The notes: a model not told the origin generated them from the sequence alone. Shown: positions 8,091-27,768, counted from the first letter of the stretch. The stretch: DNA of 27,768 nucleotides from an uncultured Thermoplasmatales archaeon (GCA_964385215.1 CAYLOF010000001.1:1-27768), one strand, 5' to 3'. Numbers and translations: made by a program.

Positions 8091-8146
8091 TAAAACCTTT
8101 AATATTCCAACGCCATAATAGAGCAAATATTTGGATGTGAAATACA

Positions 8147-9406
8147 ATGATAGTAAAAAAAAGACCGAAGAGATATCATCAAACTAAAAAAATAACTACT
8201 ATCATTTGTATAATCAGTTTACTCGCTACAGTTCCATTACTTAATGCGTCAATGGTGTATACTCTTACATGTAGTACTGATCATTCAGAATACTATCCTG
8301 GGGAGACTGTACAGATATCAGGCTATCTAAAAAATGATGGAAATGGGGTAAGCGGTTCAGTTTGTGTCGAAGTTAAATATGGCGGAGAAACGGTATTTTC
8401 TATTTGCATTTCAACTTCATCCAGTGGTTACTATGGCACGTTTTATACTGCAAATGGTTTGGGATACTATTCTGTTAAAGCTGAGGCTCATGACTATAGT
8501 GTTACAGCATATGATTCATTCAAGGTAGTATCGACTTCTGTAATTGCCGATGCCAATGGACCATATTATGGAGTTGTTGATCAACCCATACAGTTTGATG
8601 GAGGTGTTGATGGAGGAAAATCTCCACATACATGGCTTTGGATTTTTGGGGATGGTACCAATACATCAAGTGACAAAGATCCCGTATATACCTATTATTC
8701 GATAGGCAATTATACTGTTAGTTTAACCGTTCGTGACGATGGCGGGCACGAAGGTGAAGATCAAACCACTGTAACTATAACAAATGAGCTGGTAGCTGAT
8801 GCAAATGGTCCTTATGAAGGTCCACCAAACATATCAATTAGTTTCAAAGGACTAGCGTATGGTGGTTATCCACCATATTCATATGAATGGGATTTTGGTG
8901 ATGGCGATAGTTCAAACGAGCAAAACCCTGATTATAGCTACAGTTTGCTTGGTTCATATACTGTCAATTTAACAGTTACTGATGGAAAGGACATTCAGAC
9001 AACAGACTCAACAACTGTAGCTGTTGCTGAGAACTATCCACCAAATAAACCAAGCACTCCAAATGGCCCAACAAATGGGAAAGCCAATACTGAATACACA
9101 TATTCAAGTGATACCACTGATCCAAATCAAAACCAGATTTACTATCTATGGGACTGGGGAGATGGAAATACGAGTGGATGGCTTGGTCCTTATGAATCTG
9201 GAGTTATCGTAAATGCTTCATATATTTGGAGTGAAAAAGGAGATTATGAAATTAAAGTAAAGACTAAAGACGTATACGAAGCAGAAAGCGAATGGTCAGA
9301 TCCACTGCCGATCAGCATGCCAAAAAACAGAAACACACCATTCTTGCGATTTTTGCAAAATCACCTATATATATTTCCAATCTTGAGACAACTACTTGAA
9401 TTGTAA
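8147..9406 (+). CDS. Secreted PKD-domain surface protein with an amphipathic C-terminal tail
   Basis: Signal peptide; MG2/Ig-like N-terminal domain; two ADANGPY...W.FGDG..S...P.Y.Y..G.YTV.LTV PKD domains; a PP.KP...GP...WDWGDG PKD-like domain; tail MPKNRNTPFLRFLQNHLYIFPILRQLLEL. Confidence 0.85.
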   Translation: MIVKKRPKRYHQTKKITTIICIISLLATVPLLNASMVYTLTCSTDHSEYYPGETVQISGYLKNDGNGVSGSVCVEVKYGGETVFSICISTSSSGYYGTFYTANGLGYYSVKAEAHDYSVTAYDSFKVVSTSVIADANGPYYGVVDQPIQFDGGVDGGKSPHTWLWIFGDGTNTSSDKDPVYTYYSIGNYTVSLTVRDDGGHEGEDQTTVTITNELVADANGPYEGPPNISISFKGLAYGGYPPYSYEWDFGDGDSSNEQNPDYSYSLLGSYTVNLTVTDGKDIQTTDSTTVAVAENYPPNKPSTPNGPTNGKANTEYTYSSDTTDPNQNQIYYLWDWGDGNTSGWLGPYESGVIVNASYIWSEKGDYEIKVKTKDVYEAESEWSDPLPISMPKNRNTPFLRFLQNHLYIFPILRQLLEL

Positions 9407-9519: not shown

Positions 9520-11577
9520 TTGTTAAATAAAAGACCCAAGGAATATTTAGTTGTTGGTATTGCAATTCTGTTGATTGGACTTATATTTGGATCAACTGTA
9601 AATGTGTTGAGTGTTGGAATGAAACAAACATTTAACACACCTGTCACCAATAATTTATTAAGTGGATATACAGACATTTCTGTTGAAGAAGCTTGGACTC
9701 TGTTAAATGACACGTCCAATGGTCTTCAACTACCTATAGATGTTAGAACCGATGTAGAATGGGCAGGCGAACACATAGACATCCCTTCTCCTGAAAATCC
9801 AAGACATCATTGTGTTTGCGAATGGAGCGATGAAAGCATATTACAAGAGTTTATATCATTATATAAAGGTGAGGAGATTATTCTTTACTGCCTGTCTGGC
9901 GGCAGGAGTACTGATGCGGCAAATATTCTTGTTGATAATGGATTTAATGGAATAATCTATAATATGCTTGGTGGAATAACTGCATGGAAGAATGCTGGTT
10001 ATCCTACTATAGCTAATCAGCCGCCAGGTGCACCCGATATAACGGGCCCCATAACTGGAAAGGCAGGTGAAGAACAGGAATATACGATAGTTTCAACAGA
10101 TATTGAAGGTGACGACATATATTACTACATCAATTGGAGTGATGGCACCAATACAACATATATTGGCCCGTATGAATCTGATGAAGAAGTAAGCATAAGT
10201 CATACTTGGGAAGAAAAGGGAACATATATTATTAAAGCGAAGGCATGGGATTATTACCAAGCTGAAGGTGAATGGGGAACACTTGAAGTTAGTATGCCTG
10301 AAGATATGAGATCTGATCTATTATCACAATTATTTGAAAGATTAACTCAAAAATATCCTATTTTAAATAAATTTTTTTTTCAACAAACTTCCGCGCATTT
10401 AATTTATGGAACTGCAACATACAGTGATGACAGCTCTGCCGCAGGAGCACTAGTGGATGTTGTTAGTTCATTAGGTACTCTACGTACCTCTGTTTATTCT
10501 GGTGGAAACTGGCAAGTTGATTGCGGTGATCCTGGTCCAAATTGGCCTGACAGTACAGTGTTCACTGTTTATGCTACAGGTTGCTGTGGTCATCGCGGTT
10601 GGTCAGGAGAATCTTCAGGTATTGTAAGCGGCGAGTATAACGATATGGGAAATATTGTTATGTATCCAAACAGTGATCCAAATGCCCCAAGCATCCCTAA
10701 CGGGCCAATTGCACTGCATATAGGTGATTCTGGTACATACACTACAAATGCAACAGACCCTAACGATCTTCACGAAATAAGATATAAATTTGATTGGGAT
10801 GCTGAAGGATCTCATGACTATAGCAATTTCACAGAATTTGTGGATAATGGTATGCCTGCCAGTAAATCCCATTTTTGGAATGTTCCTGGCACCTATGTAG
10901 TAAAGGCTCAGGCCGAAGATGAATATGGCTATGAAAGCGATTGGTCAGAAGGTTTTACCGTAATTGTTTATGATGATGACACTCCTCCAGAGGTACCTGT
11001 TATAGATGGTCCCACCTCTGGCAAAAAAGAAAATGAATACACATATAACATCACAACAACCGATCAAGATGGCGATGTTGTCAAATATTTTGTTGACTGG
11101 GGCGATGGTACGGATAGTGGATGGGTTGGCCCATATGATTCTGGTGAGAAGATAACAGCGGCTCATGACTGGACTGAAAGAGGAGCATATGAAATTACAG
11201 TAAAAGCAAAAGACGTATGTGAAATCGAAAGTAATTGGTCAGAACCATTAGTTATGAATATCATAGGGCCAGAAATTGAAATAGGTGTTATAACTGGTGG
11301 GGCGTTCAGAATAAACGCCGTTATAAAAAATATTGGGGGAGGAGAGGCTACAGACGTTAATTGGAACATTACATTAAATGGTGGTGCAATATTTTCAGGT
11401 AAAACAACATCAGGTTTGATTGAAAGTATTCCTCCAGGGAATCAGGTGACAATAAGTTCAGATGTGATAACAGGCATAGGTAAAACAGTGGTAACAGTGG
11501 ATGTAAGCATTTATGAAGGGAATTCAGATGCAAAAGTTGTAGATGCTACTGTGCTTTTGTTTTTCATTTTGTTGTAG
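9520..11577 (+). CDS. Secreted rhodanese-domain / PKD-like multidomain protein with a shared C-terminal domain; apparent fusion of two genes
   Basis: Signal peptide; rhodanese IDVR...YCLSGGRS (Cys124)...MLGGITAW; three PKD-like units; internal tail-like motif at 10294-10380; carboxypeptidase-regulatory-like IYGTATYSD unit; C-terminal domain 11269-11577. Confidence 0.8.
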   Translation: MLNKRPKEYLVVGIAILLIGLIFGSTVNVLSVGMKQTFNTPVTNNLLSGYTDISVEEAWTLLNDTSNGLQLPIDVRTDVEWAGEHIDIPSPENPRHHCVCEWSDESILQEFISLYKGEEIILYCLSGGRSTDAANILVDNGFNGIIYNMLGGITAWKNAGYPTIANQPPGAPDITGPITGKAGEEQEYTIVSTDIEGDDIYYYINWSDGTNTTYIGPYESDEEVSISHTWEEKGTYIIKAKAWDYYQAEGEWGTLEVSMPEDMRSDLLSQLFERLTQKYPILNKFFFQQTSAHLIYGTATYSDDSSAAGALVDVVSSLGTLRTSVYSGGNWQVDCGDPGPNWPDSTVFTVYATGCCGHRGWSGESSGIVSGEYNDMGNIVMYPNSDPNAPSIPNGPIALHIGDSGTYTTNATDPNDLHEIRYKFDWDAEGSHDYSNFTEFVDNGMPASKSHFWNVPGTYVVKAQAEDEYGYESDWSEGFTVIVYDDDTPPEVPVIDGPTSGKKENEYTYNITTTDQDGDVVKYFVDWGDGTDSGWVGPYDSGEKITAAHDWTERGAYEITVKAKDVCEIESNWSEPLVMNIIGPEIEIGVITGGAFRINAVIKNIGGGEATDVNWNITLNGGAIFSGKTTSGLIESIPPGNQVTISSDVITGIGKTVVTVDVSIYEGNSDAKVVDATVLLFFILL

Positions 11578-11607
11578 TATTTAATTGTAGTATTTAATAT
11601 ATAATGG

Positions 11608-11647
11608 TTTAAAAGGGTATTTTTGCCCCTAAACTCCCTGCTTTTTA
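11608..11647 (+). terminator. Possible weak hairpin plus T-run after 9520..11577
   Basis: tttaaaagggtatttttgcccctaaa forms an imperfect inverted repeat, followed by ctgcttttt. Confidence 0.3.
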
Positions 11648-11927
11648 ATGGAAAAACCACGTTCCTAATAATGTTCCATTTCTTCAATTAGAATCTGCAA
11701 ACATTTCTCATATTTATTTGAAAATAAAGAATTTATTGTTTAATTGTTTTTATATTTTAAAGAAGGAATTCTACCTGCTCTATAGTAAACGAAGTGGGAA
11801 GTGGCTGGTGGTAGACATACCTATTGACATTTTTCTTTACAATCAGAATCAACGAGGGATATACATGTTAGTCAGTTGGCACTTCAATAAATTAACTGAG
11901 CAGGTTACCAATAGAATTGATATGATT

Positions 11928-11956
11928 AAAAAATAAAAAAAGAGAAAAAGGTAGAT
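11928..11956 (-). terminator. Pyrimidine-rich/oligo-T terminator of the 1253-aa gene
   Basis: The minus strand reads ctacctttttctc followed by two long T-runs immediately after the stop at 11960. Confidence 0.55.
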
Positions 11957-11959
11957 GCT

Positions 11960-14900
11960 TTAAGCATCTATTGGTTCTGGTGATGTCCACTCAGGACTAT
12001 ATACGATAAGATCTGGATCTCCGTATAGGCACTGAACTGTTGTCACAGTAAGAGATGAAGAACCGTACATTGACGTTGGATCTTTTGTTGTAAAATCTCG
12101 CAGATGACGCCAAACTTCATTAGAATATGCTAGGCCTATTGAAACACCATCAACCATAACACTATCAAAGACGATATTGTCCATTAAATCTTCCTGTGGA
12201 GTTAATCCCGATCCTGCATTACCAAAGAAGAAAGATGCTCCGTGATCAAGATATACCATTGGTCCAAACGCATCACCGGTTGTACATGAAAGATAGAATA
12301 TTACATTGCTTCCTAGATTTTCAAATAATTCGTCAGCATAGTCATAGTGAATAATGTCATACAAGGATGGTGGTTCAGCATTATACCAACTTCTTCCATT
12401 GTTTCTGACAATCTGCCAATTATCATATTTTGAATAACCACGCCATGCATCCCACCATATTTGTTCTGGGTAGTTACAATGTTCTGTTTGGTCAAATTGT
12501 GCAGATGTTCCACTTCCACCAGTTCCATGTCCTGCATAATACATAGCACTTGCACCTTCATTTAAACGTTGAAGATGAGCATCCCATAAACAATGACCCT
12601 CGTAGTTTCTAAAATGAGATCCAAATGATTTCTTAACACTTCTACTTGAGTAAGCTGGTGTTGTCTCGTGATCGTTAGTTGTCCATTGACCACCATCTGC
12701 AAAGTTCATAAGTTGAGAAGTTGTGACATCACGATTCGGGTTTGCAAAGATTACTGCAGGATATAATATATTTCTTAATACCATTGCAGAAGTATACGCT
12801 GGTGTGATTCCTACAATGTGTCCTGCATATGAGTTATTGCCCAACATAACTGAGTGAGCCGGGATATATATGTCCTTTCGAGGTGCTACGAAACAGTATC
12901 CTTCTTTTCCAGATTGGTCAAGCCCTAGGCTATTGATATAATTGTATATTCCATCATGCAATTCTTCATTCCAATATCTTTTTGCATCCATTCCCAAAGG
13001 CGGAAGTCCTCCTGATGATCCTCCAGAGATTGCATATAAAAATGCGTCAAAGAGGGATTTTATAGACCATTCTCCTTCTCCAGCTAAGGGTTCATTGTGA
13101 TCTGGAAGATGTCCAGTTGATCTCGAACCATGATAATAATCTCCTGACCAAAGTCTCCAAGTTTCTATTCTGTCAGCCACACCTGCTGGATTTTCCGGTG
13201 CCTCTCCTATTCTAAGAACTGGAGAGCAATGATATGCAGCAAGCATTGCAGCAGGGGCAAAGTATCCATCTCCGGATTTAATTGAAGTTATGGTAATATA
13301 ATTTTCAGAGTTGTCATATCCTTTGACATAGTCAACAATATCTTGCATAGTCGTTAGATCTGCGTCAATGGTTGGTAAATCATTTTTCACATCCGCTCCA
13401 ATATTGCCTCTTTCAACAAATATGACTTTGCTAACGCCAAGCTGACTTAATGCATTAGATGTTGCAGATGGAATGCTGTCCGAATTGACGTACAATAATG
13501 GAGCATGTTCCTGCGATGCAATAACTGCTGCATTAGCTGCAGATATTGATGCATCCGCTCGCGAATGGGTTGCTCGTAATTCCGCCGTAATTGTATATGT
13601 CACATCTGAACCCTCAGAATTTCTTGGTACTACTATTGCTGTCCATTTCCCCTCATCAGGATGAAGTGCTTCTACTGAAAAATCAAGATGTGGTTCAGGA
13701 TTCCAAGTTCTCCATGGATTGTCCACTGGGTTTTCTAATCCATTCCATTCATGTATTGGATTTACAGGTCCATTCCATTGAGGAATATCAGGTGATATTA
13801 GATATCCTTCAGGATCAATAAGAAATACAATCAAATCAGATGGAGAGTCAGTTTGAGTTTTAACACTTAGTACAGATTCTGAATCATCAACATTGAGGGT
13901 ATACCGATCTCCCGCAAACTTTTTCACAGTGATATGGGACCAATCATCAGATGTTATATCAGAGCCTGTTCCCCAAATTCCAGGTTCTGCAATCGGATAA
14001 TAAACATCTATGCCATCTCCACTACCGTCATATGGAACGGGCCACCAATCCCCTCCAAAATTCATAAACTTGGGGAAATAACATGTTAAGAAATTCGCGT
14101 CGTCGTTGGCATGATATCCTGTTATATCATGTATTTCAACTTGAATTGCTCCCCATTTTTCATTCAAAAACATAGTATATTGGAGTTCAGTATTAAAAGC
14201 AGGATCGCTACTTTGAATATTTTCGACTTCCACTTCCCGTTTTAATGTTGTTGTTTTTTCAACTAACGTTGTAACACTATCTTCGAATTCACTGCCATCT
14301 ACTGCAATAACTGCAAGATCAGATGAGGTCCAACCTTGAGTTGCTATTTCAGCAGCTGCTGTTACTGGGTCAGAAGGTACTGTGTATTCAACTGCTACCT
14401 TTTCATGCAACGAAAGGTATGCATTCCAATCATCTATTAGATATTGTGTCGTGTCGTCAACCGTTCCTCTGTCAGCATCCACTCCAAACCAATTTGTAGG
14501 CGTATCATCGCCCTCATAGAAAATTGGGGCTAAATATCTTTGTCCACCTTCGTAATAGTTACAAGCGGGTACTGATGAAAGATAGGCATATTCGTCATTA
14601 TTGCTATTTGGATCATTAGTTATTATGAAACTTTTTGCAATAGGGGTGATATCAGGTTGAGGTATTGGAGCAGGGGGCGATGGCGCGCTTGATTCAACTG
14701 CAAAGTTCATCTTGTATGCACCAGATCCATATGTGTAGTATTTCCAATCAACCGGTTGAGGGATATCTGTGTACCCTGGGAAAATATCAATTTTAACTCG
14801 CCATTCTCCCGACTCGTCAGCAGGATAAAGCAATTCATCATCATAGTAGTAATCTTCTTCAAAAACCAATTCTCCACTAGGATTATACAACGAAATATCA

Positions 14901-15721
14901 AAGTCGGATAGGTAGGCAAGTTTTTTCATTTCTAAAGTAAAGTGGATGCCTTGGCCAGAATTAATATTGAATTTATACCAATCTTGCTCATCATTCATAT
15001 CAACGTATCCGTAATACTCACCAGGGCTTATTGTAGTGGCACCACTAAACGAGTTACCAGCATCACTTCCGGTGCCAGCATCATTTTGACTAGATAAAGA
15101 AACATCAAAAGTATACTCGCCATCACCTGAATCGCTACCTGGAACTATTGCCATATAATAATATCCACTATATTCTGCTACGTATGTAATTGATTCTGTA
15201 GTACTTGGTCCAGTAGAAGTGGCCATTTCATCTCCGGCATCATTATGAAGATAAAGATCATAGTTGTCAGTTGCAAAAAATGACATTTCGATAGTTTGAC
15301 CTTCACACACAGAGAAGAAATACCAATCTTCGTCACCACTAGATGTAATCTTCCCAGTTCTGCCTCTGCCAGGAGTATTATCAATCATTTCACCTGGGTA
15401 TAAAGCAGTAGCTCGAGAGATCTTATCTCCTGCATCCCTTCGGGTTCCTGCATCATCAAAGTCATCGCCATCAAGATTTAGCGGCTCCTCTGAATAAGGA
15501 TCTTGAATGATATATTTATTGTCAAGCCAAAATGGACCTAAATCTATAGTATCTTTGGTAGGTTCAGCAATTGGGTCACGGAAGATTGTTGCATCTTCAT
15601 TGACAAGCAAACTTTTTTCCTTTTCCACTCCTATCGAACCTGCAGGAACAAGAAACATTGTTCCAAGCAGCAGTATTGTTAAAACAACAGCGTCTATTTT
15701 TATGTTTTTTCTATATTTCAA
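11960..15721 (-). CDS. Large secreted clan CD (gingipain/C25-like) cysteine peptidase with N-terminal PPC-like repeats and CWB2-like repeats
   Basis: TTG start with AGGGGG RBS; signal peptide; two DAG...DAG..S.AT.I/LxPGE...D.D.Y.F PPC-like units; CWB2-like segments; catalytic-type YYAGHG (His1065) and YLSCTTG (Cys1146); terminal YGDP motif as in C25 proteins. Confidence 0.7.
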   Translation of the reverse strand: MKYRKNIKIDAVVLTILLLGTMFLVPAGSIGVEKEKSLLVNEDATIFRDPIAEPTKDTIDLGPFWLDNKYIIQDPYSEEPLNLDGDDFDDAGTRRDAGDKISRATALYPGEMIDNTPGRGRTGKITSSGDEDWYFFSVCEGQTIEMSFFATDNYDLYLHNDAGDEMATSTGPSTTESITYVAEYSGYYYMAIVPGSDSGDGEYTFDVSLSSQNDAGTGSDAGNSFSGATTISPGEYYGYVDMNDEQDWYKFNINSGQGIHFTLEMKKLAYLSDFDISLYNPSGELVFEEDYYYDDELLYPADESGEWRVKIDIFPGYTDIPQPVDWKYYTYGSGAYKMNFAVESSAPSPPAPIPQPDITPIAKSFIITNDPNSNNDEYAYLSSVPACNYYEGGQRYLAPIFYEGDDTPTNWFGVDADRGTVDDTTQYLIDDWNAYLSLHEKVAVEYTVPSDPVTAAAEIATQGWTSSDLAVIAVDGSEFEDSVTTLVEKTTTLKREVEVENIQSSDPAFNTELQYTMFLNEKWGAIQVEIHDITGYHANDDANFLTCYFPKFMNFGGDWWPVPYDGSGDGIDVYYPIAEPGIWGTGSDITSDDWSHITVKKFAGDRYTLNVDDSESVLSVKTQTDSPSDLIVFLIDPEGYLISPDIPQWNGPVNPIHEWNGLENPVDNPWRTWNPEPHLDFSVEALHPDEGKWTAIVVPRNSEGSDVTYTITAELRATHSRADASISAANAAVIASQEHAPLLYVNSDSIPSATSNALSQLGVSKVIFVERGNIGADVKNDLPTIDADLTTMQDIVDYVKGYDNSENYITITSIKSGDGYFAPAAMLAAYHCSPVLRIGEAPENPAGVADRIETWRLWSGDYYHGSRSTGHLPDHNEPLAGEGEWSIKSLFDAFLYAISGGSSGGLPPLGMDAKRYWNEELHDGIYNYINSLGLDQSGKEGYCFVAPRKDIYIPAHSVMLGNNSYAGHIVGITPAYTSAMVLRNILYPAVIFANPNRDVTTSQLMNFADGGQWTTNDHETTPAYSSRSVKKSFGSHFRNYEGHCLWDAHLQRLNEGASAMYYAGHGTGGSGTSAQFDQTEHCNYPEQIWWDAWRGYSKYDNWQIVRNNGRSWYNAEPPSLYDIIHYDYADELFENLGSNVIFYLSCTTGDAFGPMVYLDHGASFFFGNAGSGLTPQEDLMDNIVFDSVMVDGVSIGLAYSNEVWRHLRDFTTKDPTSMYGSSSLTVTTVQCLYGDPDLIVYSPEWTSPEPIDA

Positions 15722-15773
15722 TTTATTCTGCCCCCTAATCTGATATATATATTAAATATATATGATACTTGAT

Positions 15774-15795
15774 GTATAAATAATTTACCTTTATC
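15774..15795 (-). promoter_or_regulatory. BRE/TATA-like promoter for the 1253-aa gene
   Basis: The minus strand reads gataaaggtaaattaTTTATAc about 55 nt upstream of the start. Confidence 0.4.
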
Positions 15796-16041
15796 ATTTT
15801 ATCTAGATCATTCTTTAATGTTTGATAGTAATTAATATTCAAGCTTATGTTATCATGCTATCTTAGGTATCTTAGGAAAATACTCCCAATGTTATCCAAA
15901 TTTAATACTAATACCACTATTATGTAACATTTACTACATACTATACCTTTTCACTACACATTTTCCATTTATATAATATTGTAATAGTGCAAAATGTATT
16001 AACACTCTAGAGATGGACAACATGGCTCTCTGTTTTTAACA

Positions 16042-16117
16042 AAATTCAAGCAAATTCAAGCAAAACATTACGAAACATTTATACATTACCTAATATATAT
16101 ACAATAGGGGAAACCTT
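16042..16117 (+). promoter_or_regulatory. Promoter of 16118 with upstream 10-bp phased repeats, BRE/TATA and GGGGA RBS
   Basis: aaattcaagc twice (16042, 16052), aaaacattac, cgaaacaTTTATA (16071-16083), taGGGGAaaccttATG. Confidence 0.6.
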
Positions 16118-16218
16118 ATGAATAAATCAAAAAAGGCAAAAATATTTATTGAGGCAGCTTTAGTGATTGTTGTTACATTGGCTTTACTTATGCCAGCTTC
16201 AGCAGTAGTCACTAACAA
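16071..16218 (+). repeat. 5' constant block, copy 1 (promoter + RBS + signal peptide); copy 2 at 17841..17988
   Basis: 148-nt ungapped alignment, 8 mismatches by manual count, offset 1770. Confidence 0.95.
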
Positions 16219-17713
16219 TGTAGACAATGCCTATGGTTTTGAGAGAGTTGATAACCAAGGCAATTTAAAGAAAAAAACAATAGCCAATACTTTTGCAGGA
16301 GATGACATTTGGGCGACACCATTCCAAGGTGATGATTATATACCAGCAATTACTAAAGATTTAGATGGTAATGTTGTAATATCCTGGACAAATGAACAGA
16401 GTTTCAGTGAATCATATTTTGGAATAAGTTATTCTGATGATCCATCTGATGCGCAAACATGGTATGATAATGGATTGGTTCTAACACTCTCTGGAAATGA
16501 TTATGGTTTTGATACTGCACTAATCGTAGGACCTGAATCTGATGATTTCAAGGGTCTTGTTGGTGTCTATTTCTCTTTAGCTGATGATTTAGCTGGCTAT
16601 TATGAAATTGAAGACATCACTGGAGATTTTGGAGATTGGCCAATTTATTCCTGGACTGATTTTGGACAAGATTCTTATTACTCATGTATTGCGGATGGTG
16701 GTTTTGTTCAGGGAGGATATTATCCTGACATGTTTGGACCAATGATATTTCATATATGTTTAAATGATCTATGTGGAACCATACCTGAATGTCCAGTTTT
16801 TGGCCATATTGATATTCGCAATGATGGTAGTGGCGTATTTTTCTATGATTGCCAGGAATTTGAACAGACAGCACCAGCCGCAGACCCTGATTACTTTATG
16901 GTTGTAGATAGAGAGATATATCATACAGTAGTCTATAATCATGAAACCAATGACGTGATATGGAAAAAAGTCGACCCAACTGTTGAACATGATTATGAAT
17001 ACACTCCATTCCAGAGTACCATTGGAACAGGAACAAACCCTGCTATTGCAGGCTATGGCACAAATGTAGCTGTTGTTTATACAGATGAAGGACAGGTAAA
17101 ATGTGCACATAGTAGTGATGATGGAGAAACATGGGACACTTCACCAGTAGCTTCAGGAGGATTTTCAGACATATGTGCAGTTGGAACAACGCTTTATGTT
17201 ACATACATCTCTAGTGGAAATTTATTTAAAGTTACATCAGAGGATGGTGGAGCAACCTGGAGTCAAGCAGAGCAAATAAACGATGTCGATGGAACTGTTG
17301 TTGCAATGGAAAATTCTGTTGATATACATGAAGCAGGAATTGTATGGGTAGATGAAAGAGGCGAAGATTGGGATATCTATTATGAAGGACTAGTGAGCAT
17401 ACCACAACCAAAAATTGAAATAGATCAGATAGCCGGAGGTATCGGTGTCAGTGCAGTAGTTACAAACAATGGAGATGTCGATGCAACAGATGTAGAGTGG
17501 AGCATCACATTAGATGGTACAGTATTCCTTGGCGCTGAGAAAACTGACACAATTTCAAGCATTGCAGTTGGTGAATCCGTCCCAATTAAATCAGGATTCC
17601 CATTAGGCTTTGGTCCTATAGATATAACAATAACTGCACAAAGTGCTGAAGGACCATCTGATACAGAAACAGCAAGTGGAAAGTTACTTCTATTCTTTAT
17701 AACTGGATTATAA
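16118..17713 (+). CDS. Secreted BNR/Asp-box (sialidase-like propeller) protein with shared C-terminal domain, paralogue A
   Basis: Signal peptide ending PASA; Asp-boxes SSDDGETW and SEDGGATW; IVWVDER..DWDIYY; C-terminal domain 17408-17713 ending LLLFFITGL. Confidence 0.8.
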   Translation: MNKSKKAKIFIEAALVIVVTLALLMPASAVVTNNVDNAYGFERVDNQGNLKKKTIANTFAGDDIWATPFQGDDYIPAITKDLDGNVVISWTNEQSFSESYFGISYSDDPSDAQTWYDNGLVLTLSGNDYGFDTALIVGPESDDFKGLVGVYFSLADDLAGYYEIEDITGDFGDWPIYSWTDFGQDSYYSCIADGGFVQGGYYPDMFGPMIFHICLNDLCGTIPECPVFGHIDIRNDGSGVFFYDCQEFEQTAPAADPDYFMVVDREIYHTVVYNHETNDVIWKKVDPTVEHDYEYTPFQSTIGTGTNPAIAGYGTNVAVVYTDEGQVKCAHSSDDGETWDTSPVASGGFSDICAVGTTLYVTYISSGNLFKVTSEDGGATWSQAEQINDVDGTVVAMENSVDIHEAGIVWVDERGEDWDIYYEGLVSIPQPKIEIDQIAGGIGVSAVVTNNGDVDATDVEWSITLDGTVFLGAEKTDTISSIAVGESVPIKSGFPLGFGPIDITITAQSAEGPSDTETASGKLLLFFITGL

Positions 17714-17751
17714 TTAGAATAGATAAAACTACCCACCTCTCTTCTTTTTTT
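17491..17751 (+). repeat. 3' constant block, copy 1 (distal C-terminal domain + 3' UTR + terminator); copy 2 at 19294..19554
   Basis: 261-nt ungapped alignment, 7 mismatches by manual count, all transitions, offset 1803. Confidence 0.95.
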
Positions 17752-17760
17752 TTAATTTTT
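17731..17760 (+). terminator. Oligo-T terminator of paralogue A
   Basis: acccacctctcttc followed by T9 and aattttt. Confidence 0.6.
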
Positions 17761-17840
17761 AATTAAACATACAAATATTTCTTTATATTGTGGCTTGCTT
17801 TACCTCTTAACTATTAATTGTATAAAAATTATGGGTAAAG

Positions 17841-17887
17841 CGAAACATTTATACATTACTTAATATATATAAGGTAGGGGAAACCTT
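17841..17887 (+). promoter_or_regulatory. Promoter and RBS of paralogue B, near-identical to that of paralogue A
   Basis: cgaaacaTTTATAcattac...taGGGGAaaccttATG. Confidence 0.65.
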
Positions 17888-19516
17888 ATGAATAAAGCAA
17901 AAAAGGCAAAAATATTTATTGAGGCAGCTTTAGTGGTTGTTGTTACACTGGCTTTAATTATGCCAGCTTCAGCAGTAGTCACTAACAAAACAACGGATAA
18001 TTCAACATCCATTAAAATAGTTCCAACGAATACACCGATTTCAAATGCAGGATCATTAGCTGCAGGCAATATTTTAATAACGGCAGACAATCCTGATGAA
18101 GATGATCAAAACCCAAAGATACTAAAGGACGGTGGAGGAAACATCCTTGTTGTTTATGAAAAAGTTAAGGACACCTTCACCATCGCCAGTGAGTTAGTTT
18201 TTACAGACGATGATGGAGCTACATGGTATTTGGCATATGATTTTGATTCCACAAATTGGGACTCTGGTTCCGGTGAGCTTATATCAGGGGACATATCATA
18301 CAATCCAGCTATTGATAAAACTTTCTGGTGTGCAATAGATGCAATTGGCGATATGTACAATCTAAGAATGACTTGGTTGGAGGGAAATATTGTCAATGCT
18401 GGAGACGTTACGATATATGGTGTTTCTGGTACAGGTGCAACAGAACATTATGAGACATCATGTACTTGTGTGTCTGAATGGGCAATCACTCCATATATTT
18501 GCGATGAACCTGATTATGATCTTTATCGTTGCCCTGGCCTAGGATATTGGGATATCGATTTTGAGCATCCAGATATGGGTGGATTTTATTATGATGGAGG
18601 ATCAATCCTTGAAACCACTCCCGCAAGCAATATCGAGGCTGAAACTGGTGTAGAACGCATGTACATGGTAATGCAAGTTGATGATAAGATTGCTTTCAAG
18701 GCAACTACTACTGATCCGGAACTTCTTCAAACCAATGGCGGCGGACCTGGAGGAATGGACCAATATGCAGATATCGAATGCTGGCCATGGCAAAATTGGA
18801 TTGCAACAGAAAACGCAGAAGATCCTGATGTTTCAGGTGATGCTGGAAAAGTCTGTGTTGTCTATTCACAGGACGGAATGGTAAAATGTGCATATAGTAG
18901 CGATGTTGTAAAGGAATATGAAGAAGAAATTGAATTCCAAGTATCTGAGATAGATGCGGGGAGCTATCCAACTGTTTATATGTCTGGAAATGACGTATAC
19001 GTCGGATACGTAGAGAGTGGAAACCTTTACTTCATAAAATCTACTGACGGTGGAGCAACATGGGGCACTCCTGTACAAAAGAACGAAATAGATGGAACTG
19101 TTGTTGGACAATATGGTACTTGTCACATCGATTCTGTTGGTATTGTTTGGACTGACTCTAGAAACGGAAACTATGATGTTTATTATGATGTAACTCAATA
19201 CATCCCACAACCAAAAATAGACATTGAACAAATATCCGGTGGTTTAGGAGTTAGCGCAGTTGTAACAAACAATGGAGATGCTGATGCTACAAATGTAGAG
19301 TGGAGTATCACATTAGATGGTACAGTATTTCTTGGCGCTGAGAAAACTGACACAATTTCAAGCATTGCAGTTGGCGAATCCGTCCCAATTAAATCAGGAT
19401 TCCCATTAGGTTTTGGCCCTATAGATGTAACAATAACTGCACAAAGTGCTGAAGGACCATCTGATACAGAAACAGCAAGTGGAAAGTTACTTCTATTCTT
19501 TATAACTGGATTATGA
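17888..19516 (+). CDS. Secreted BNR/Asp-box propeller protein with shared C-terminal domain, paralogue B
   Basis: Signal peptide nearly identical to paralogue A; Asp-boxes TDDDGATW and STDGGATW; IVWTDSRNGNYDVYY; C-terminal domain 19211-19516. Confidence 0.8.
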   Translation: MNKAKKAKIFIEAALVVVVTLALIMPASAVVTNKTTDNSTSIKIVPTNTPISNAGSLAAGNILITADNPDEDDQNPKILKDGGGNILVVYEKVKDTFTIASELVFTDDDGATWYLAYDFDSTNWDSGSGELISGDISYNPAIDKTFWCAIDAIGDMYNLRMTWLEGNIVNAGDVTIYGVSGTGATEHYETSCTCVSEWAITPYICDEPDYDLYRCPGLGYWDIDFEHPDMGGFYYDGGSILETTPASNIEAETGVERMYMVMQVDDKIAFKATTTDPELLQTNGGGPGGMDQYADIECWPWQNWIATENAEDPDVSGDAGKVCVVYSQDGMVKCAYSSDVVKEYEEEIEFQVSEIDAGSYPTVYMSGNDVYVGYVESGNLYFIKSTDGGATWGTPVQKNEIDGTVVGQYGTCHIDSVGIVWTDSRNGNYDVYYDVTQYIPQPKIDIEQISGGLGVSAVVTNNGDADATNVEWSITLDGTVFLGAEKTDTISSIAVGESVPIKSGFPLGFGPIDVTITAQSAEGPSDTETASGKLLLFFITGL

Positions 19517-19532
19517 TTAGAATAGATAAAAC

Positions 19533-19565
19533 TACCCACCTCTCTTCTTTTTTTATTTTCTTTTT
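19533..19565 (+). terminator. Oligo-T terminator of paralogue B
   Basis: Same acccacctctcttc + T-run as paralogue A. Confidence 0.6.
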
Positions 19566-19742
19566 TAATAAATTTATTTAATAAAATTCTGTTATTATTT
19601 TATATTGCTTATATTAAACAAAACATTTAAGTAATGGAAAATAGATATCTTCCATAACATTGGAGGAAAAAAGTTATAGATTGTAAAGTGAAGAAAAATA
19701 TGAGTATTTGTTAGATACATACAGACAAAATTGGTGAAAAAT

Positions 19743-21320
19743 ATGAAGAAAAAAAATATTGGAATATATGCAATAACATTGATTATTGCAGGGCTGATGA
19801 TTGCAGTTTCTGCTACTGCTATAGTGCAGAAACCAAACGAGGAAAAAAGATACATTAACTGGAATAGAACTGAGGCTTGTATATCTGGAGTAGAAATGAC
19901 AGAAATAATGCCTGCAAAAGAACTCAAACATGCACCAGGACAACTTAGTGCTGATCCATTGTATAATGGCGCCTATCCAGATGTTGCAAGTGGAGGATCT
20001 AACATTTGTCTCGGTTTTGATAGTTTAGAGACTCCAGGTACAGCATTTACATTCTCACAAGACGGCGGTGCATCCTGGCATGAAAGTGCATATGGTTGGG
20101 AATTAGGAGAATCAATGTGGCCCTCAGTTGACTTTTCAGCAGGTAATCGATTCTATGGAACAGTTTCCCCAGATTGGTCAACAAATGGTTATGTGACTCA
20201 ATGTGATTTTGTGGATATAACTGACCCAGAAACATGGGTTGCTGGTACTTGGGACTGGTCATCATATGATATGATGGAGTTTGAAGGAATATCTATTGCA
20301 GCAATGGATGATAGCCTAGAAGAATGGAGATGGGGATTCATCACAATGTCGGGCTACAATGGATATAACGACCCCGCTGCAGATGGTTGTCCATATGTGA
20401 TGTATGCAACTGATGATGGCTATGCTACAATTAGCTGGCTAATAGATAGTGACTCAGGAGATATCCTTGGTGGCTGTGAAAATGCAGCTAGTGAAATAGA
20501 TCCAGTTCGCTACCATAATTATGCAATATGGGAACGATATAATGATGACGAGGAAAGTTACAACTTAGAATTCCGTAAGGATGATTCTGCTGCAGAAGCA
20601 GGTGAAAGCGGATTTGTTACAGCAGGAGAACTAGTAACCTCTGAAAATAGCCGTTATCCTGATATTAGCGCCTATGATAGCAATGTCATTATTGTTTCAG
20701 AAGCAGATGGAGATATAGTCTGCTATTATTCTAATAATGGACTGAACAATTTCGATGCAATTTTTGTAGCATCCACAACAGATGACGAAACATTTCCGAG
20801 GATAACCCATACAGGAGAAGATGAAGCAATTTGCACCTTTATTAAAAATGAAAATATCTACTACTCCATGACAGATGATGGAGGAGCTACATGGGACGAA
20901 CCTACAATGATTAATGATGTAGAAGGACAAGTAACAGAAGATTACCTTTCATCAGGCGTCTGTGAATTGGGTGCATGTTTCGGCGGCAATGATGATATAG
21001 TTTATTATGGGGCAGTAGGGGCCAAACCTATTATTACAATTGAAGGGTTTACTGGCGGTCTTGGTGCAACTGCAACCATAAAGAACGTAGGGACTGCTGA
21101 TGCAACAAATGTGGAATGCTCCATAACTGTGACAGGCGGAATTTTAGGGATGGTAAACAAAACAGTCACTGAAACAATATCAGGTATTGCAGTAGACGAA
21201 GAGGTAACCATAAGTACAGGAATCTTTTTGGGACTTGGTGCAATAGAAATAACCGCTACCGCAGGATCGTCAAGTGATTCCACAACAGGTACACAGATAC
21301 TGATCTATACAATGCTATAA
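19743..21320 (+). CDS. Secreted BNR/Asp-box propeller protein with divergent shared C-terminal domain, paralogue C
   Basis: GGTGA RBS before ATG 19743 (ORF track starts at GTG 19731); signal peptide ending SATA; SQDGGASW and TDDGGATW Asp-boxes; C-terminal domain 21027-21320 ending QILIYTML. Confidence 0.8.
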   Translation: MKKKNIGIYAITLIIAGLMIAVSATAIVQKPNEEKRYINWNRTEACISGVEMTEIMPAKELKHAPGQLSADPLYNGAYPDVASGGSNICLGFDSLETPGTAFTFSQDGGASWHESAYGWELGESMWPSVDFSAGNRFYGTVSPDWSTNGYVTQCDFVDITDPETWVAGTWDWSSYDMMEFEGISIAAMDDSLEEWRWGFITMSGYNGYNDPAADGCPYVMYATDDGYATISWLIDSDSGDILGGCENAASEIDPVRYHNYAIWERYNDDEESYNLEFRKDDSAAEAGESGFVTAGELVTSENSRYPDISAYDSNVIIVSEADGDIVCYYSNNGLNNFDAIFVASTTDDETFPRITHTGEDEAICTFIKNENIYYSMTDDGGATWDEPTMINDVEGQVTEDYLSSGVCELGACFGGNDDIVYYGAVGAKPIITIEGFTGGLGATATIKNVGTADATNVECSITVTGGILGMVNKTVTETISGIAVDEEVTISTGIFLGLGAIEITATAGSSSDSTTGTQILIYTML

Positions 21321-21332
21321 ATCGGTAAGCAA

Positions 21333-21363
21333 CTCCTCTCTTCCTTTTTTTCTTTTTTATTTC
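21333..21363 (+). terminator. Oligo-T terminator of paralogue C
   Basis: actcctctcttcc followed by T7, c, T6; same cctctcttc core as A and B. Confidence 0.55.
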
Positions 21364-21504
21364 TGCTAGATCATCCTTATTGTTTTTCAATAATTTGTAT
21401 CTATGTAATTGCTAGGATTAGATATAAGTGATAAATGCTGCAAACTAGTTTCTTGAACGGAAGCAATTGCTAAATGTTCTAGTTCAAACCCTTGAAACAG
21501 ATGT

Positions 21505-23091
21505 TTACCAAGGCCAAAGATGATGCCAAGATCCTTGCAAATATAGTTCAATGGAAATTGATGTAAATTCAATTTCACCAGTTGTCTCTAAATTCCAGTC
21601 AACAGGAGGCCAGACCGTCCAATCAAGACGAAAATCTTCGGCTTTGAACATTTCAGATACCGTTCTTATTCCAAGGTCCTCTCCCTGTATCAAAAGGTCA
21701 ATTTCATTCAATGGCTGCCAGTTTGTATCGTATTCTAAATATCCTGTAATATTGGTGTACCATGAAATTGAGATGTCCTCAGCTGCTGGCATAGCGTTAA
21801 GTTTTGCTACCCACTCGCCGATATAAAACTCAATATCAATGTTAAATGATGGATTCTTTTTTACAACAAATTCGCCCGGATTCGTCAGATTCCATTGAGC
21901 AGTCATATCGATATCTTCAAGATTACGTATGGTTAGGTTAACAGTTGGGTTTGTTAAAGAATCTTTGAGGATAAAATCAGTCCCATCGGAATCTACAACA
22001 ATGGAATATGAGCCATTTTCTCGTGTTGGTGTCCATTCAGCATTGATTTTTCGTGGAGTATTTTTAATAGTAGCATATTTACATACTCCCATTTCAGTTG
22101 ATGTAACAAGCACCTCAACATCATACATTTCATCACTTTCATACAGAAAGCTACCACCTCCATCGATCAAAGGTGTTAGCGCAAGAGAAAAGGATAGTTC
22201 CTTAGGAATTTCATCAATTGTAAAGACTGTTTCTTTTTCCTCTTCATCCTTTATTCTTGTAAAATTAACAGTGATTTTCGCATCAGTAGACGATTCTCGA
22301 ATAAATTGATATTTCCATTCACCTTGATTTCGTGTTGAAGAGATAGTCATTTGTGTTTCTATGGCGGGTTCAAAATCAAAAGAAAAAATCTTCTCAGTGT
22401 CTTCACTGGTATGTTTCGCATAGAATACAATTTGTTTGCCTTCTCTTCCAGTTAAATATTCTGGGTTCACATAAAATTTCAATCCATTTGTCTGTTCAGT
22501 GGGATTGAAAAATAACATACAGGATATTCGTATGGAGTTAGGAATTTCGTTTCCTTCATTAGATGGAGACCAATATCCCATCTCTAGGTTATTGTTTCCA
22601 AAATCCATAGTAAACTTGAAGTTTTTATCTTTTATTTCTTCACCAATTCGCTCTATATTTACAGTGAAAAGAAGACCAAAAATAAGATTTGGATCTGGCA
22701 ATATATATGGAAGTATCAGGAACTGTACCCGGATATCAGCACCATTAATTCCTGTGTTTTCATTATCATCAACATCAATGTCATTAAAAAATCCAAAATA
22801 TACTTCCTTTGTTTTTTCTACATCATTACATGTTGTATGTATGACACTGGTAAAAATCCCACTTTGCTTAAGATTTTTGCCATACCCTCTATAAATATTT
22901 TTTATGTTATCTCTAAAATTAAAAGATTGTTTCATTTTTTCAGAGAATTTTCCATCAGCATTTTCTAATAATTTTTTAGTATACGGCTCATGATGTCCGA
23001 TGCTTGCCATTCCAGATGGTAGTATGGTCCCAATCAAAAAAAACACAACCAAAATGACCAATATGTTTTCCAATATTTTGTTTTTCTTCAT
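21505..23091 (-). CDS. Secreted beta-rich hypothetical protein with ~45-58-aa internal repeats
   Basis: GAGGTGA RBS; signal peptide; DIDVDDNENTG acidic motif; recurring TIxN/ExPxxIxxxW units; Trp-rich end WHHLWPW. Confidence 0.75.
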   Translation of the reverse strand: MKKNKILENILVILVVFFLIGTILPSGMASIGHHEPYTKKLLENADGKFSEKMKQSFNFRDNIKNIYRGYGKNLKQSGIFTSVIHTTCNDVEKTKEVYFGFFNDIDVDDNENTGINGADIRVQFLILPYILPDPNLIFGLLFTVNIERIGEEIKDKNFKFTMDFGNNNLEMGYWSPSNEGNEIPNSIRISCMLFFNPTEQTNGLKFYVNPEYLTGREGKQIVFYAKHTSEDTEKIFSFDFEPAIETQMTISSTRNQGEWKYQFIRESSTDAKITVNFTRIKDEEEKETVFTIDEIPKELSFSLALTPLIDGGGSFLYESDEMYDVEVLVTSTEMGVCKYATIKNTPRKINAEWTPTRENGSYSIVVDSDGTDFILKDSLTNPTVNLTIRNLEDIDMTAQWNLTNPGEFVVKKNPSFNIDIEFYIGEWVAKLNAMPAAEDISISWYTNITGYLEYDTNWQPLNEIDLLIQGEDLGIRTVSEMFKAEDFRLDWTVWPPVDWNLETTGEIEFTSISIELYLQGSWHHLWPW

Positions 23092-23220: not shown

Positions 23221-24450
23221 CTATTTTGATAAACTACCCCACGTTTTCTTTAGCATGAAGGCAAGAACCAACGCACATAGGGCGATACTCAGTCCGAACC
23301 CATATGTTTTACCCACTTTGGCATTTGTTTTGAAGAAACCTAAAGGATACAAATCTATGCTTTCCCCATTAGGTAATATGCCCTCATACGGCACGTCTCC
23401 AATACCGTCACCATCTGCATCTGTTCCGTTATAATCGCTCCAATAATTGCCAATTTTGTTTTTATACCATTGATTGTCAAAAGTATCATATGCACTTTTA
23501 TTGTTTAATGAAAAGTTATTTAGATAAAGCGTATTAAAATAAGATTTACAGCATATCCAACAGCCAAACATTTTGCTCGAATGTATTGCATTTTCAAAGA
23601 CCATGTTGTCATTGGAGTGTATAATGTAAATCCCATAATCGTTATTTCCTACAAAATTTTCGGTAACAGTATTATTTGACGCATAGTTTAAACGTATCCC
23701 AAAGATGCTATTAGAAACACTAGTATTTATGATTGAACAAGTTGAAGAGTACCCAAGCACAATGCCTTGATCTGCATTTGATATGGTTATATCTTGTATT
23801 GTAAGGTTAGTACAGTTTGATATGATTACTTGGCCAGGCTCATCAGGTGAAATTGTTTTGTTAACCATGTTTTTGTAGAAGTAAAGCTTTTTTCCATTTA
23901 CTGTGTTGTTTTTGATAATATGGGTATTCCAACCAGTAATGTTGCCTACGATGTTTATTCCGTCATTTATAAATGTATTATTCTCAAAAACATTGTTTGA
24001 TGAATGGTATAAATAGATGCCCCAATCGCTGTTGTTTTCAATGATATTATCTGTTATTGCATTGTTGTCCGATTCAATATTTATGCCAGAATAACCCTTG
24101 CCCTTAGAATTTCTTACAGTAAATCTCTTAAAAGTACATCCATCTGCTGTTATAGACACAGTTTCGCCACTTTCATTGTATTCTATTATTGTAGATGATT
24201 TTTCTTCCCCGATGAGATGTACTGTTTTATATAGTCTAATGCTCTCACGATAGATACCATTAGAAACATATATGATGTCACCTTGTTGTGCATTATTTAT
24301 GGCGTCCTGTATGGACAGAAATTTTCCATCTGTCTCTCCTCCTACGTATATGGCATTTTTATCTGCAGCCAAACAATTATTAGCGGGAATTAAAAAGAGC
24401 ATAAGTAACAAAAGTGTAATTGATATTTCAATGAATTTTTTGTTATTCAT
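23221..24450 (-). CDS. Secreted beta-helix (NosD/CASH-like) protein with a PGF-CTERM-like membrane anchor
   Basis: Signal peptide; SIQDAINNAQQGDIIYVSNGIYRE cap; coils; GNYWSDY.GTDADGDGIGDVPY; tail KTYGF + hydrophobic helix + KK. Confidence 0.85.
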   Translation of the reverse strand: MNNKKFIEISITLLLLMLFLIPANNCLAADKNAIYVGGETDGKFLSIQDAINNAQQGDIIYVSNGIYRESIRLYKTVHLIGEEKSSTIIEYNESGETVSITADGCTFKRFTVRNSKGKGYSGINIESDNNAITDNIIENNSDWGIYLYHSSNNVFENNTFINDGINIVGNITGWNTHIIKNNTVNGKKLYFYKNMVNKTISPDEPGQVIISNCTNLTIQDITISNADQGIVLGYSSTCSIINTSVSNSIFGIRLNYASNNTVTENFVGNNDYGIYIIHSNDNMVFENAIHSSKMFGCWICCKSYFNTLYLNNFSLNNKSAYDTFDNQWYKNKIGNYWSDYNGTDADGDGIGDVPYEGILPNGESIDLYPLGFFKTNAKVGKTYGFGLSIALCALVLAFMLKKTWGSLSK

Positions 24451-27726: not shown

Positions 27727-27768
27727 ATGAAGAAAATATTGCCATTGTTACTAATAGGAATCCTAATC
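27727..27768 (+). CDS. Start of a secreted protein truncated by the window edge
   Basis: MKKILPLLLIGILI resembles the C25 signal peptide MKETLPILIVGILI. Confidence 0.6.
   Translation, partial: MKKILPLLLIGILI

Follow-up and report, generated by a model that had tools for sequence, protein, structure and literature searches.

Near-identical ends around ancient cores in tandem beta-propeller genes of an uncultured Thermoplasmatales archaeon point to segmental concerted evolution

Tandem families of streptococcal emm-like genes carry near-identical signal-peptide and C-terminal anchor regions around dissimilar functional regions, and recombination between the shared ends changes the number of genes. 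In the outer membrane protein genes babA/babB and homA/homB of Helicobacter pylori, an end segment (segment 3) clusters by strain, which has been explained by gene conversion within the genome, favoured by structural constraint on that segment (PMC2795765). Here, we describe an array of three tandem genes, A, B and C, encoding predicted secreted beta-propeller proteins with a C-terminal domain (CTD), from a 27,768-nt stretch of DNA (the window; W in pairwise comparisons; 36% G+C) of an uncultured Thermoplasmatota (Thermoplasmatales) archaeon. The H. pylori genes are the closest described parallel, as there, too, the middles are divergent and the ends group strain-wise, the middles gene-wise. 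In contrast to H. pylori, however, the archaeal copies stand directly in tandem instead of being dispersed, homogenisation affects both ends with their promoter-like and terminator-like regions, and the middles represent old conserved types rather than allelic or antigenically variable ones, with neither phase variation nor chimeric genes being seen. Unlike in the emm-like genes, a known sorting signal was not found in A and B, and the hydrophobic tail of A is modelled as beta-strand and not as anchor. The locus clearly exemplifies, in an archaeon, a process already known and does not represent a new variation machine, and the protein family concerned is uncharacterised. The three genes are as follows.

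16118-17713, + strand: gene A, an open reading frame (ORF) call of 531 amino acids (aa) with A-type core, encoding a putative secreted BNR/Asp-box beta-propeller with CARDB-like CTD
17888-19516, + strand: gene B, an ORF call of 542 aa with B-type core and the architecture of A
19731-21320, + strand: gene C, 529 aa, a C-type paralogue whose CTD is diverged and which has a signal peptide of its own

The ends of A and B form two pairs of direct repeats. At the 5' side, 16071-16218 and 17841-17988 are 95% identical according to the repeat finder and agree at 140/148 nt on recount, while at the 3' side a value of 92% was obtained for 17398-17697 versus 19201-19500, with BLASTN stretching this block to 17398-17751 versus 19201-19554 (92.7% over 354 nt). 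Identity in the 3' block increases from 79% over 17398-17489 to 97% over the last ~260 nt, and within the sub-block 17491-17751 versus 19294-19554 it amounts to 254/261 nt. The sharp 3' boundary at about 17476-17490 (codon ~451-457) lies within the CTD. Exact matches extend over up to 38 nt (5' block) and 87 nt (3' block), and there are 8 and 26 differences between the copies, respectively, these mismatches involving all bases and including the stop codon (TAA versus TGA). Between the blocks, the two cores reach only ~30-45% nucleotide identity in sliding windows. A first-pass annotation of this DNA had described near-identical ends around a highly diverged propeller core. Its manual counts of 140/148 and 254/261 were reproduced exactly, and the divergence of the cores is borne out by the low sliding-window identity and by saturated synonymous divergence (dS > 2.7), whereas the 3' boundary does not coincide with the propeller/CTD border (~codon 428-433). 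In the following rows, as throughout, L plus number labels related contigs or loci, P plus number homologous proteins, and pS and pN are the proportions of synonymous and nonsynonymous differences.

16071-16117, + strand: non-coding part of the 5' block of copy A with a B recognition element (BRE)/TATA-like sequence, AAACATTTATACATT, at 16073-16087 and an AGGGG Shine-Dalgarno (SD)-like box; 43/47 identical to 17841-17887
16118-16218, + strand: coding part of the 5' block of copy A, signal peptide MNKSKKAKIFIEAALVIVVTLALLMPASAVVTN; 97/101 identical to 17888-17988, dS 0.04
16219-17475, + strand: diverged core of A, comprising propeller, linker and the first CTD strands; pS 0.6-1.0 against B in 24-codon windows
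17476-17751, + strand: 3' block of copy A with distal CTD (codons ~453-531), stop TAA and a 38-nt 3' flank with T-run
17752-17840, + strand: A-B junction spacer, present as a single copy in the window and homologous to the A-D junction of L002 and the E-A junction of L095
17841-17988, + strand: 5' block of copy B with promoter-like motif at 17843-17857, SD-like box and signal peptide
19279-19554, + strand: 3' block of copy B with distal CTD, stop TGA and T-rich flank

Similarity of the ends extends to synonymous and non-coding sites. Upstream of the ATG, 43 of 47 non-coding positions are identical, compared to merely 13 of the preceding 50, and downstream of the stop codon all 38 of 38 agree. 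By the Nei-Gojobori method, dS between A and B is 0.04 for the signal peptide and 0.13 for the distal CTD (about codons 451-531), with the core being saturated (>2.7; estimate 2.8). In line with this, the same codon is used for shared degenerate amino acids in 27/28 cases (96%) in the signal peptide and 71/77 (92%) in the distal CTD versus 62/121 (51%) in the core (Fisher P = 2.6e-6 and 4.5e-10 for signal peptide and distal CTD, respectively), and synonymous divergence in sliding windows is high (pS 0.6-1.0) in the core. Hence, recombination is needed and selection is not sufficient alone, which agrees with the earlier proposal that protein-level selection alone could not explain the pattern. 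Moreover, CTD codons 428-450 show a pN between A and B of already only 0.09 at a pS of 0.63, so that the step in identity at the 3' boundary corresponds to the end of a recombination tract and not to a change in protein constraint. A search of 15500-21600 against Rfam at E <= 1 yielded zero matches; thus, a known RNA element does not explain the non-coding identity.

The blocks are not likely to be an assembly artefact, as the copies differ at 8 + 26 positions and are reproduced elsewhere: L001, a JGI contig from sample 3300031369, is 100% identical to window positions 10550-21385 (10.8 kb), and a second contig of 34,781 bp carries A with one amino-acid change and B and C exactly. The same argument had been made before from the distinct single-nucleotide differences of each copy, and the concordant contigs now strengthen it. 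In the propeller, a stretch of 85 nt around the blade with the VKCAxSSD Asp-box (17039-17123 versus 18824-18908) shows 73% A/B identity and a pS of 0.26-0.4, which is due either to ancient conversion over a short tract or to strong constraint on this blade.

For comparison with relatives, a set of 124 homologous proteins, nearly all from metagenome-assembled genomes (MAGs) of uncultured Thermoplasmatota/Thermoplasmatales, was divided into three parts each, namely the first 33 residues, the core and the last 104 residues. Searching genome contigs with a 7-sequence CTD alignment retrieved loci of relatives; the CTD as single protein query gave zero matches, and a metagenome scan, in a collection from which the source sample seems to be missing, retrieved one close relative only (L030, 80%). 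The ENA contig L002 is about 86% identical to the window at the nucleotide level across A and a neighbouring gene encoding a 1253-aa protein, and carries an A-type gene, A2, followed by a D-type gene, D2. The signal peptides of A2 and D2 are identical to each other (MNKMKKTKIFIEAALVIVVTLALIMPVSSVVTN) and different from those of the window, and their 3' blocks share derived states missing from A and B. A2 and D2 differ at a dS of 0.15 (signal peptide), 0.13 (distal CTD) and 1.5 (core), whereas the values for the orthologues A and A2 are 0.18, 0.27 and 0.61, respectively. Thus, ends of paralogues within a genome (dS 0.04-0.15) are closer than those of orthologues (0.18-0.27), the hallmark of gene conversion that has kept paralogues evolving in concert since the strains separated.

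Nucleotide identities, for which values of ~58-62% in the global alignments have to be taken as baseline noise, give the same picture. In the 5' block they amount to 95% for A and B of the window, 92% for A2 and D2 of L002 and 84% for the B- and A-type copies of L098, and in the 3' block to 96, 92 and 85%, respectively. Between window and L002, they are lower than within either contig (5' 86-90%, 3' 80-86%), and the L098 blocks, 84-85% identical between their own copies, are only 66-74% identical to those of the window. Cores, by contrast, find their best partners in other genomes, with 86% for A versus L002 A, 90% for B versus L097 B and 92% for L096 D versus L002 D. This grouping of ends by genome and of cores by type is the signature of segmental concerted evolution. 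An equivalent pattern has arisen independently in the distant Thermoplasmatales MAG contig L004, where the second and third of three genes in an array show a dS of 0.04 in the signal peptide, 1.5 in the core and 0.09 in the distal CTD; repeated end blocks are also present in L023, L037 and L038. A further lineage possesses a CTD that is not homologous (PKD plus a tail ending in ...FPNAFPLLRYLLGL) on A-type as well as D-type cores; hence, end modules go with the lineage and not with the core, even where the module itself has been replaced.

Orthologous ends are not generally slow at synonymous sites. Between B and its L097 orthologue, dS is 0.33 in the distal CTD and 0.34 in the core, and between D-type orthologues it is 0.62 (5' block) and 0.28 in the ends versus 0.21 in the core. 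Ends that have diverged as much as the core or more exclude a general synonymous constraint.

The cores fall into at least five ancient paralogue types, as judged from their sequences, and are not hypervariable. Core amino-acid identity is 55-91% within and 21-42% between types, each type being conserved in distant lineages, while the ends group by lineage instead. The types are composed as follows.

A-type cores: A and P0001-P0004
B-type cores: B, P0048, P0083, P0069, P0072 and P0074
C-type cores: the fifth type, including gene C
D-type cores: P0012, P0018 and P0033
E-type cores: P0066 and P0094

Compared to B, the B-type core of P0048 is 90% identical at the amino-acid level and those of P0083, P0069, P0072 and P0074 57-62%. 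The cores are under purifying selection, with ratios of nonsynonymous to synonymous divergence (dN/dS) between orthologues of 0.10 (A), 0.16 (B) and 0.30 (D). The A core and its L002 orthologue A2 share 86% of nucleotides and 88% of amino acids. Furthermore, A-type cores and the neighbouring 1253-aa gene show similar nucleotide identities to the window (86/87% in L002, 68.5/74% in L100 and 71/68% in L098-L099), and this co-divergence indicates vertical inheritance. Gene C differs from A at a dS > 1.2 in every segment, and its ends resemble those of the C-type genes in L006, L008 and L032. It had been regarded earlier as an older, fully diverged member, and indeed represents a separate old type outside the A/B homogenisation. 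In the public gene call, C starts at 19743 and has 525 aa. Among the 124 homologues, neither A/B hybrid proteins nor hybrid cores were found. The ENA protein P0007 (314 aa) is of A-type and 86% identical but runs off frame after residue ~290 into an unrelated end, the cause being a frameshift in this allele or else a sequencing error in a different sample.

All three genes of the array are full-length, and each comes with a separate promoter-like motif, an ATG, a signal peptide, a stop codon and a T-run. Such completeness of every copy is incompatible with an arrangement of silent donors and an expression site. The motif AAACATTTAWRYATT occurs at 16073, 17843, 19621 and 27669, i.e., four times in the window versus 0.17 expected, and each copy precedes a gene for a secreted protein and is followed by an AGGGG box ahead of the ATG. 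It would correspond to a BRE/TATA promoter, with the predicted TATA at 16079 for A and 17849 for B, and the T-run in the 3' flank resembles an archaeal terminator, both functions being predicted from the sequence. The fourth copy precedes a gene starting at 27728 (MKKILPLLLIGILI...) and running off the window, with the spacing of TAGGGGA and ATG being as in A and B. Hence the motif may be a common promoter of a secreted-protein regulon. At the A-D junction of L002, positions 7038-7115 contain a local duplication of the promoter-like motif (CGAAACCTTTATACATTATTTATACCTTAC).

From this evidence we conclude that the ends of A and B have probably been kept alike by recurrent gene conversion while the old cores stayed distinct. 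A, B and C would then be a tandem array of anciently diverged paralogues for secreted propeller-CTD proteins, in which recurrent non-reciprocal homologous recombination between the neighbours A and B, with or without unequal crossing-over, overwrites both ends, that is, promoter, ribosome-binding site and signal peptide at one end and distal CTD, stop and terminator at the other. Purifying selection on signal peptide and CTD would keep these segments similar enough for pairing, whereas pairing would be prevented by divergence in the functionally distinct cores, at which conversion tracts would end. The junction modules common to the copies may, as a side effect, serve as substrates for unequal crossing-over, by which whole units would be deleted, duplicated or reordered between strains.

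Several points weigh against this interpretation. Conversion is deduced from comparing contigs and not from an event seen directly, and for any single pair of genes one duplication plus core replacement would give the same mosaic. In addition, the blocks of window and L002 are less diverged (dS 0.18-0.27) than the A core (0.61), albeit at borderline significance (P = 0.07 and 0.02), and this low block dS could reflect exchange of end modules between strains or nucleotide-level constraint besides conversion within genomes. Finally, the cross-strain comparisons all employ contigs from short-read metagenomes, which are prone to break or mis-join at these repeats, so that some array arrangements could be chimeric. 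L097 both starts and ends in constant blocks, the ends of L033 (1-122 versus 1848-1969) are 100% identical, and many family contigs are about one gene long and bounded by constant blocks (those of P0012, P0018, P0048 and P0066 have ~1.8-2.3 kb). Obviously, the repeats fragment short-read assemblies or close them into loops.

An alternative that we consider unlikely is a system of cassettes or modular exchange, in which the constant flanks exist so that propeller cores can be swapped, gained or lost, resulting in a variable surface or exo-enzyme repertoire with respect to viruses or substrates. It would account for an array content that differs between relatives while the junction modules stay homologous. 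Further copies with different cores, for which the first-pass annotation had proposed to look, do exist, and the arrays, in which big(-) denotes the large (-) strand gene adjoining the array, are composed as follows.

Window: big(-), A, B, C
L002: big(-), A, D ...
L095: (A-upstream-like spacer), E, A ...
L096: ... D, C
L098/L099: big(-), B, A, C-position gene, C25; order of A and B reversed relative to the window
L003: big(-), A, C25 (A alone)
L100: big(-), A-type with PKD tail, C
L006, L008 and L032: A-type, C-type

The junction, consisting of 3' block, spacer and 5' block, is homologous across A-B, A-D and E-A at 83-84% nucleotide identity, with continuous alignments of L002 5265-7216 to window 16058-17988 (84%) and of L095 1761-2299 to 17435-17988 (83%). 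With junctions homologous across arrays, unequal crossing-over is the simplest source of the differences in content. Additional exchange is hinted at by the reversed order of B and A in L098 and the discordant C of L100, and the divergence of segments is discordant as well, with a dS of 0.21 for the D core versus 0.62 for its 5' block and of 0.61 for the A core versus 0.18-0.27 for its ends. In L100 (JGI 3300040953, Ga0451424_039608), positions 6572-8292, comprising C and its upstream region, are 89.5% identical to window 19608-21321, although the neighbouring 1250-aa gene reaches 74% and the A-type gene of the same contig 68.5%, which is either due to lateral replacement at the locus or to a chimeric contig. 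The third gene of L098 (3716-5299) occupies the C position and is very diverged from the C of the window (core pN 0.47); the C slot seems to hold different sub-lineages.

However, the ancient and conserved cores (dN/dS 0.1-0.3) and the co-divergence of the A core with the 1253-aa gene speak against swapping. All copies are complete and predicted to be promoted separately, neither hybrids nor partial silent copies were seen, and the same A, B and C are present in a second, near-identical assembly. Simple deletions between junctions are sufficient to derive most arrangements, and chimerism of contigs at the repeats is possible. Of the cassette system initially proposed for A and B, recombination between homologous flanks and the associated gain or loss of units are supported, and units are reordered as well, whereas the analogy to antigenic variation or variable adhesins is not supported in view of ancient conserved cores, complete genes and the lack of hybrids. 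Likewise, the idea that variable cores are exchanged has to be turned around, as the segments moved or overwritten are the ends and not the cores. A related and comparably speculative possibility is that the junction module acts as a self-homogenising portable unit across Thermoplasmatota arrays and mediates exchange, loss, reordering and replacement of core and CTD types between co-existing strains. If true, it would be a recombinase-free cassette system working at population level and tuning the extracellular repertoire of sediment archaea.

It is highly improbable that the mosaic arose without ongoing homogenisation, from one recent duplication of the entire gene A (or B) and subsequent recombination that replaced the core with DNA of a different paralogue or strain. 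For one pair the outcome would be the same, and the proximal 3' gradient (79%, then 97%) could be the end of one old tract. But the pattern recurs with other partners and other derived states in L002, L098, L004 and L023, demanding a rare two-step event repeatedly, and B-type orthologues sit in the same arrays in distant lineages. Synonymous constraint is often seen in translation-initiation regions. Selection on the nucleotide sequence itself, for example on a regulatory or localisation element at the mRNA ends, would fit the conserved promoter-like motif and SD-like box of the 5' block and the reduced block dS between A and A2, but together with an assembly artefact it has a negligible probability, considering the lack of an Rfam match, a block dS of B- and D-type orthologues equal to or above that of the core, genome-specific derived states in the ends of paralogues and, with respect to an artefact, copies that are not identical (8 + 26 differences) and are reproduced in other contigs.

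Three specialised variation systems were also considered and rejected. Domain searches of the large ORFs found neither recombinase nor transposase nor reverse transcriptase in the window, as previously stated for recombinase and reverse transcriptase genes. A diversity-generating retroelement was dismissed as the large ORFs lack a reverse transcriptase domain and the block mismatches are not adenine-specific. An invertible or shufflon-type switch was discarded since only direct repeats flank the cores and a recombinase was not found. Silent-donor antigenic variation of the pilE/pilS or vlsE/vls type does not apply because of the absence of promoterless partial donors, diversifying selection and hybrids; additional partial family copies were not found in the window.

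Concerning the encoded proteins, Pfam and NCBIfam matches to BNR, CARDB and beta-propeller families are all sub-threshold. For CARDB (PF07705), A and B score 22.1 and 20.5 bits, respectively, at a cut-off of 22.7, and some relatives have precomputed PF07705 hits. The AlphaFold2 (AF2) model of A, based on a 78-sequence family alignment (predicted local distance difference test, pLDDT, 89.4), shows a helix at residues 5-23 (signal peptide), a disordered linker, an all-beta propeller reaching to residue ~423 and, at 433-531, a beta-sandwich of 7-8 strands. Cleavage of the Sec-type signal peptide is predicted after ASA. Foldseek best matches are the bacterial sialidases 1wcq, 2ber, 3h6j/2w38 and 8t26 and, at rank 5, the YVTN propeller-PKD S-layer protein of Methanosarcina mazei (PDB 1L0Q), with low TM-scores of 0.3-0.46. 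The proteins resemble GH33 sialidases, the best matches being those of Micromonospora and Pseudomonas, in their six-bladed Asp-box propeller fold (Asp-boxes SSDDGETW and SEDGGATW), and the family profile matches GH33 sequences of the PDB through these boxes only. In contrast to these enzymes, A and B lack the arginine of the (F)RIP motif, which aligns to Y in A (DYIPAIT) and to Q in B (DQNPKIL), and the sole nearly invariant arginine of the family alignment is R414. Together with the low TM-scores, this leaves catalytic sialidase activity unsupported. The relative P0067 is named 'sialidase family protein' by NCBI. With 1L0Q, A and B share the order of an extracellular archaeal beta-propeller followed by an Ig-like domain; unlike its YVTN repeats, those of A and B are of BNR type, and a sequence relationship is not detectable. 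A, B and C are therefore best described as presumptive secreted propellers of sialidase fold, for which specificity is probably other than sialidase and the roles of propeller and CTD are predicted only from homology and model.

The CTD is a shared module. In the window, the family CTD profile finds only A, B, C and the following gene (residues 591-691, E = 3e-23).

9520-11577, + strand: rhodanese/PKD surface protein with a C-terminal CARDB-like domain of the same type as the CTD of A, B and C

Known sorting signals (LPXTG, PGF-CTERM and others) were not found by Pfam/NCBIfam searches. The C-terminal ...GKLLLFFITGL was tried as a membrane anchor and rejected, as LLLFFITGL comprises 9 residues and forms the last beta-sandwich strands in the AF2 model (pLDDT 84-94). 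A second type of tail follows PKD domains: ...SMPKNRNTPFLRFLQNHLYIFPILRQLLEL ends the PKD protein encoded at 8147-9406, and ...SMPEDMRSDLLSQLFERLTQKYPILNKFF, of the same type, is found inside the rhodanese/PKD protein (residues ~255-295). On A- and D-type propellers of other lineages (P0005, P0008, P0082, L100), a module of this kind takes the place of the CARDB-like CTD. Hence, two types of C-terminal module coexist in this genome.

The array is set in an island of surface proteins and exo-enzymes that also encodes NosD/beta-helix proteins, PKD proteins, a GH127-like protein, two C25 peptidase-related proteins and the 1253-aa PPC-domain protein. A tRNA scan of the window gave zero tRNAs. The sole inverted repeat of the window (4815-4857 versus 23383-23425; 43 nt, 79%, 18.5 kb apart) corresponds to the DADGDGIWDTPYE motif, which two NosD/beta-helix paralogues encoded on opposite strands share at their C-termini, and is coding similarity, not a switch. 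A direct repeat at 7605-7790 and 7881-8066 (186 nt, 77%) within ORF 6405-8090 encodes a duplicated C-terminal domain of ~90 aa (...NWNxxxxPxxQSxDKADxxVNYxGxDxxWADAVTAGxxNDVxFGWNxATQGYEF...).

For work on this family, the consequences are practical in the first place. The repeats fragment metagenome assemblies and can mis-join them, similarity of signal peptide or CTD is not usable for assigning orthology, and trees of whole genes would mix two histories. Considering its position among C25 peptidases, NosD/beta-helix and PKD proteins, the family is a candidate part of an extracellular polymer-degrading or cell-surface apparatus in sediment archaea. In this setting, the array would provide a quantifiable archaeal example of segmental concerted evolution, in which the regulatory and sorting ends are overwritten while the old functional cores are preserved.

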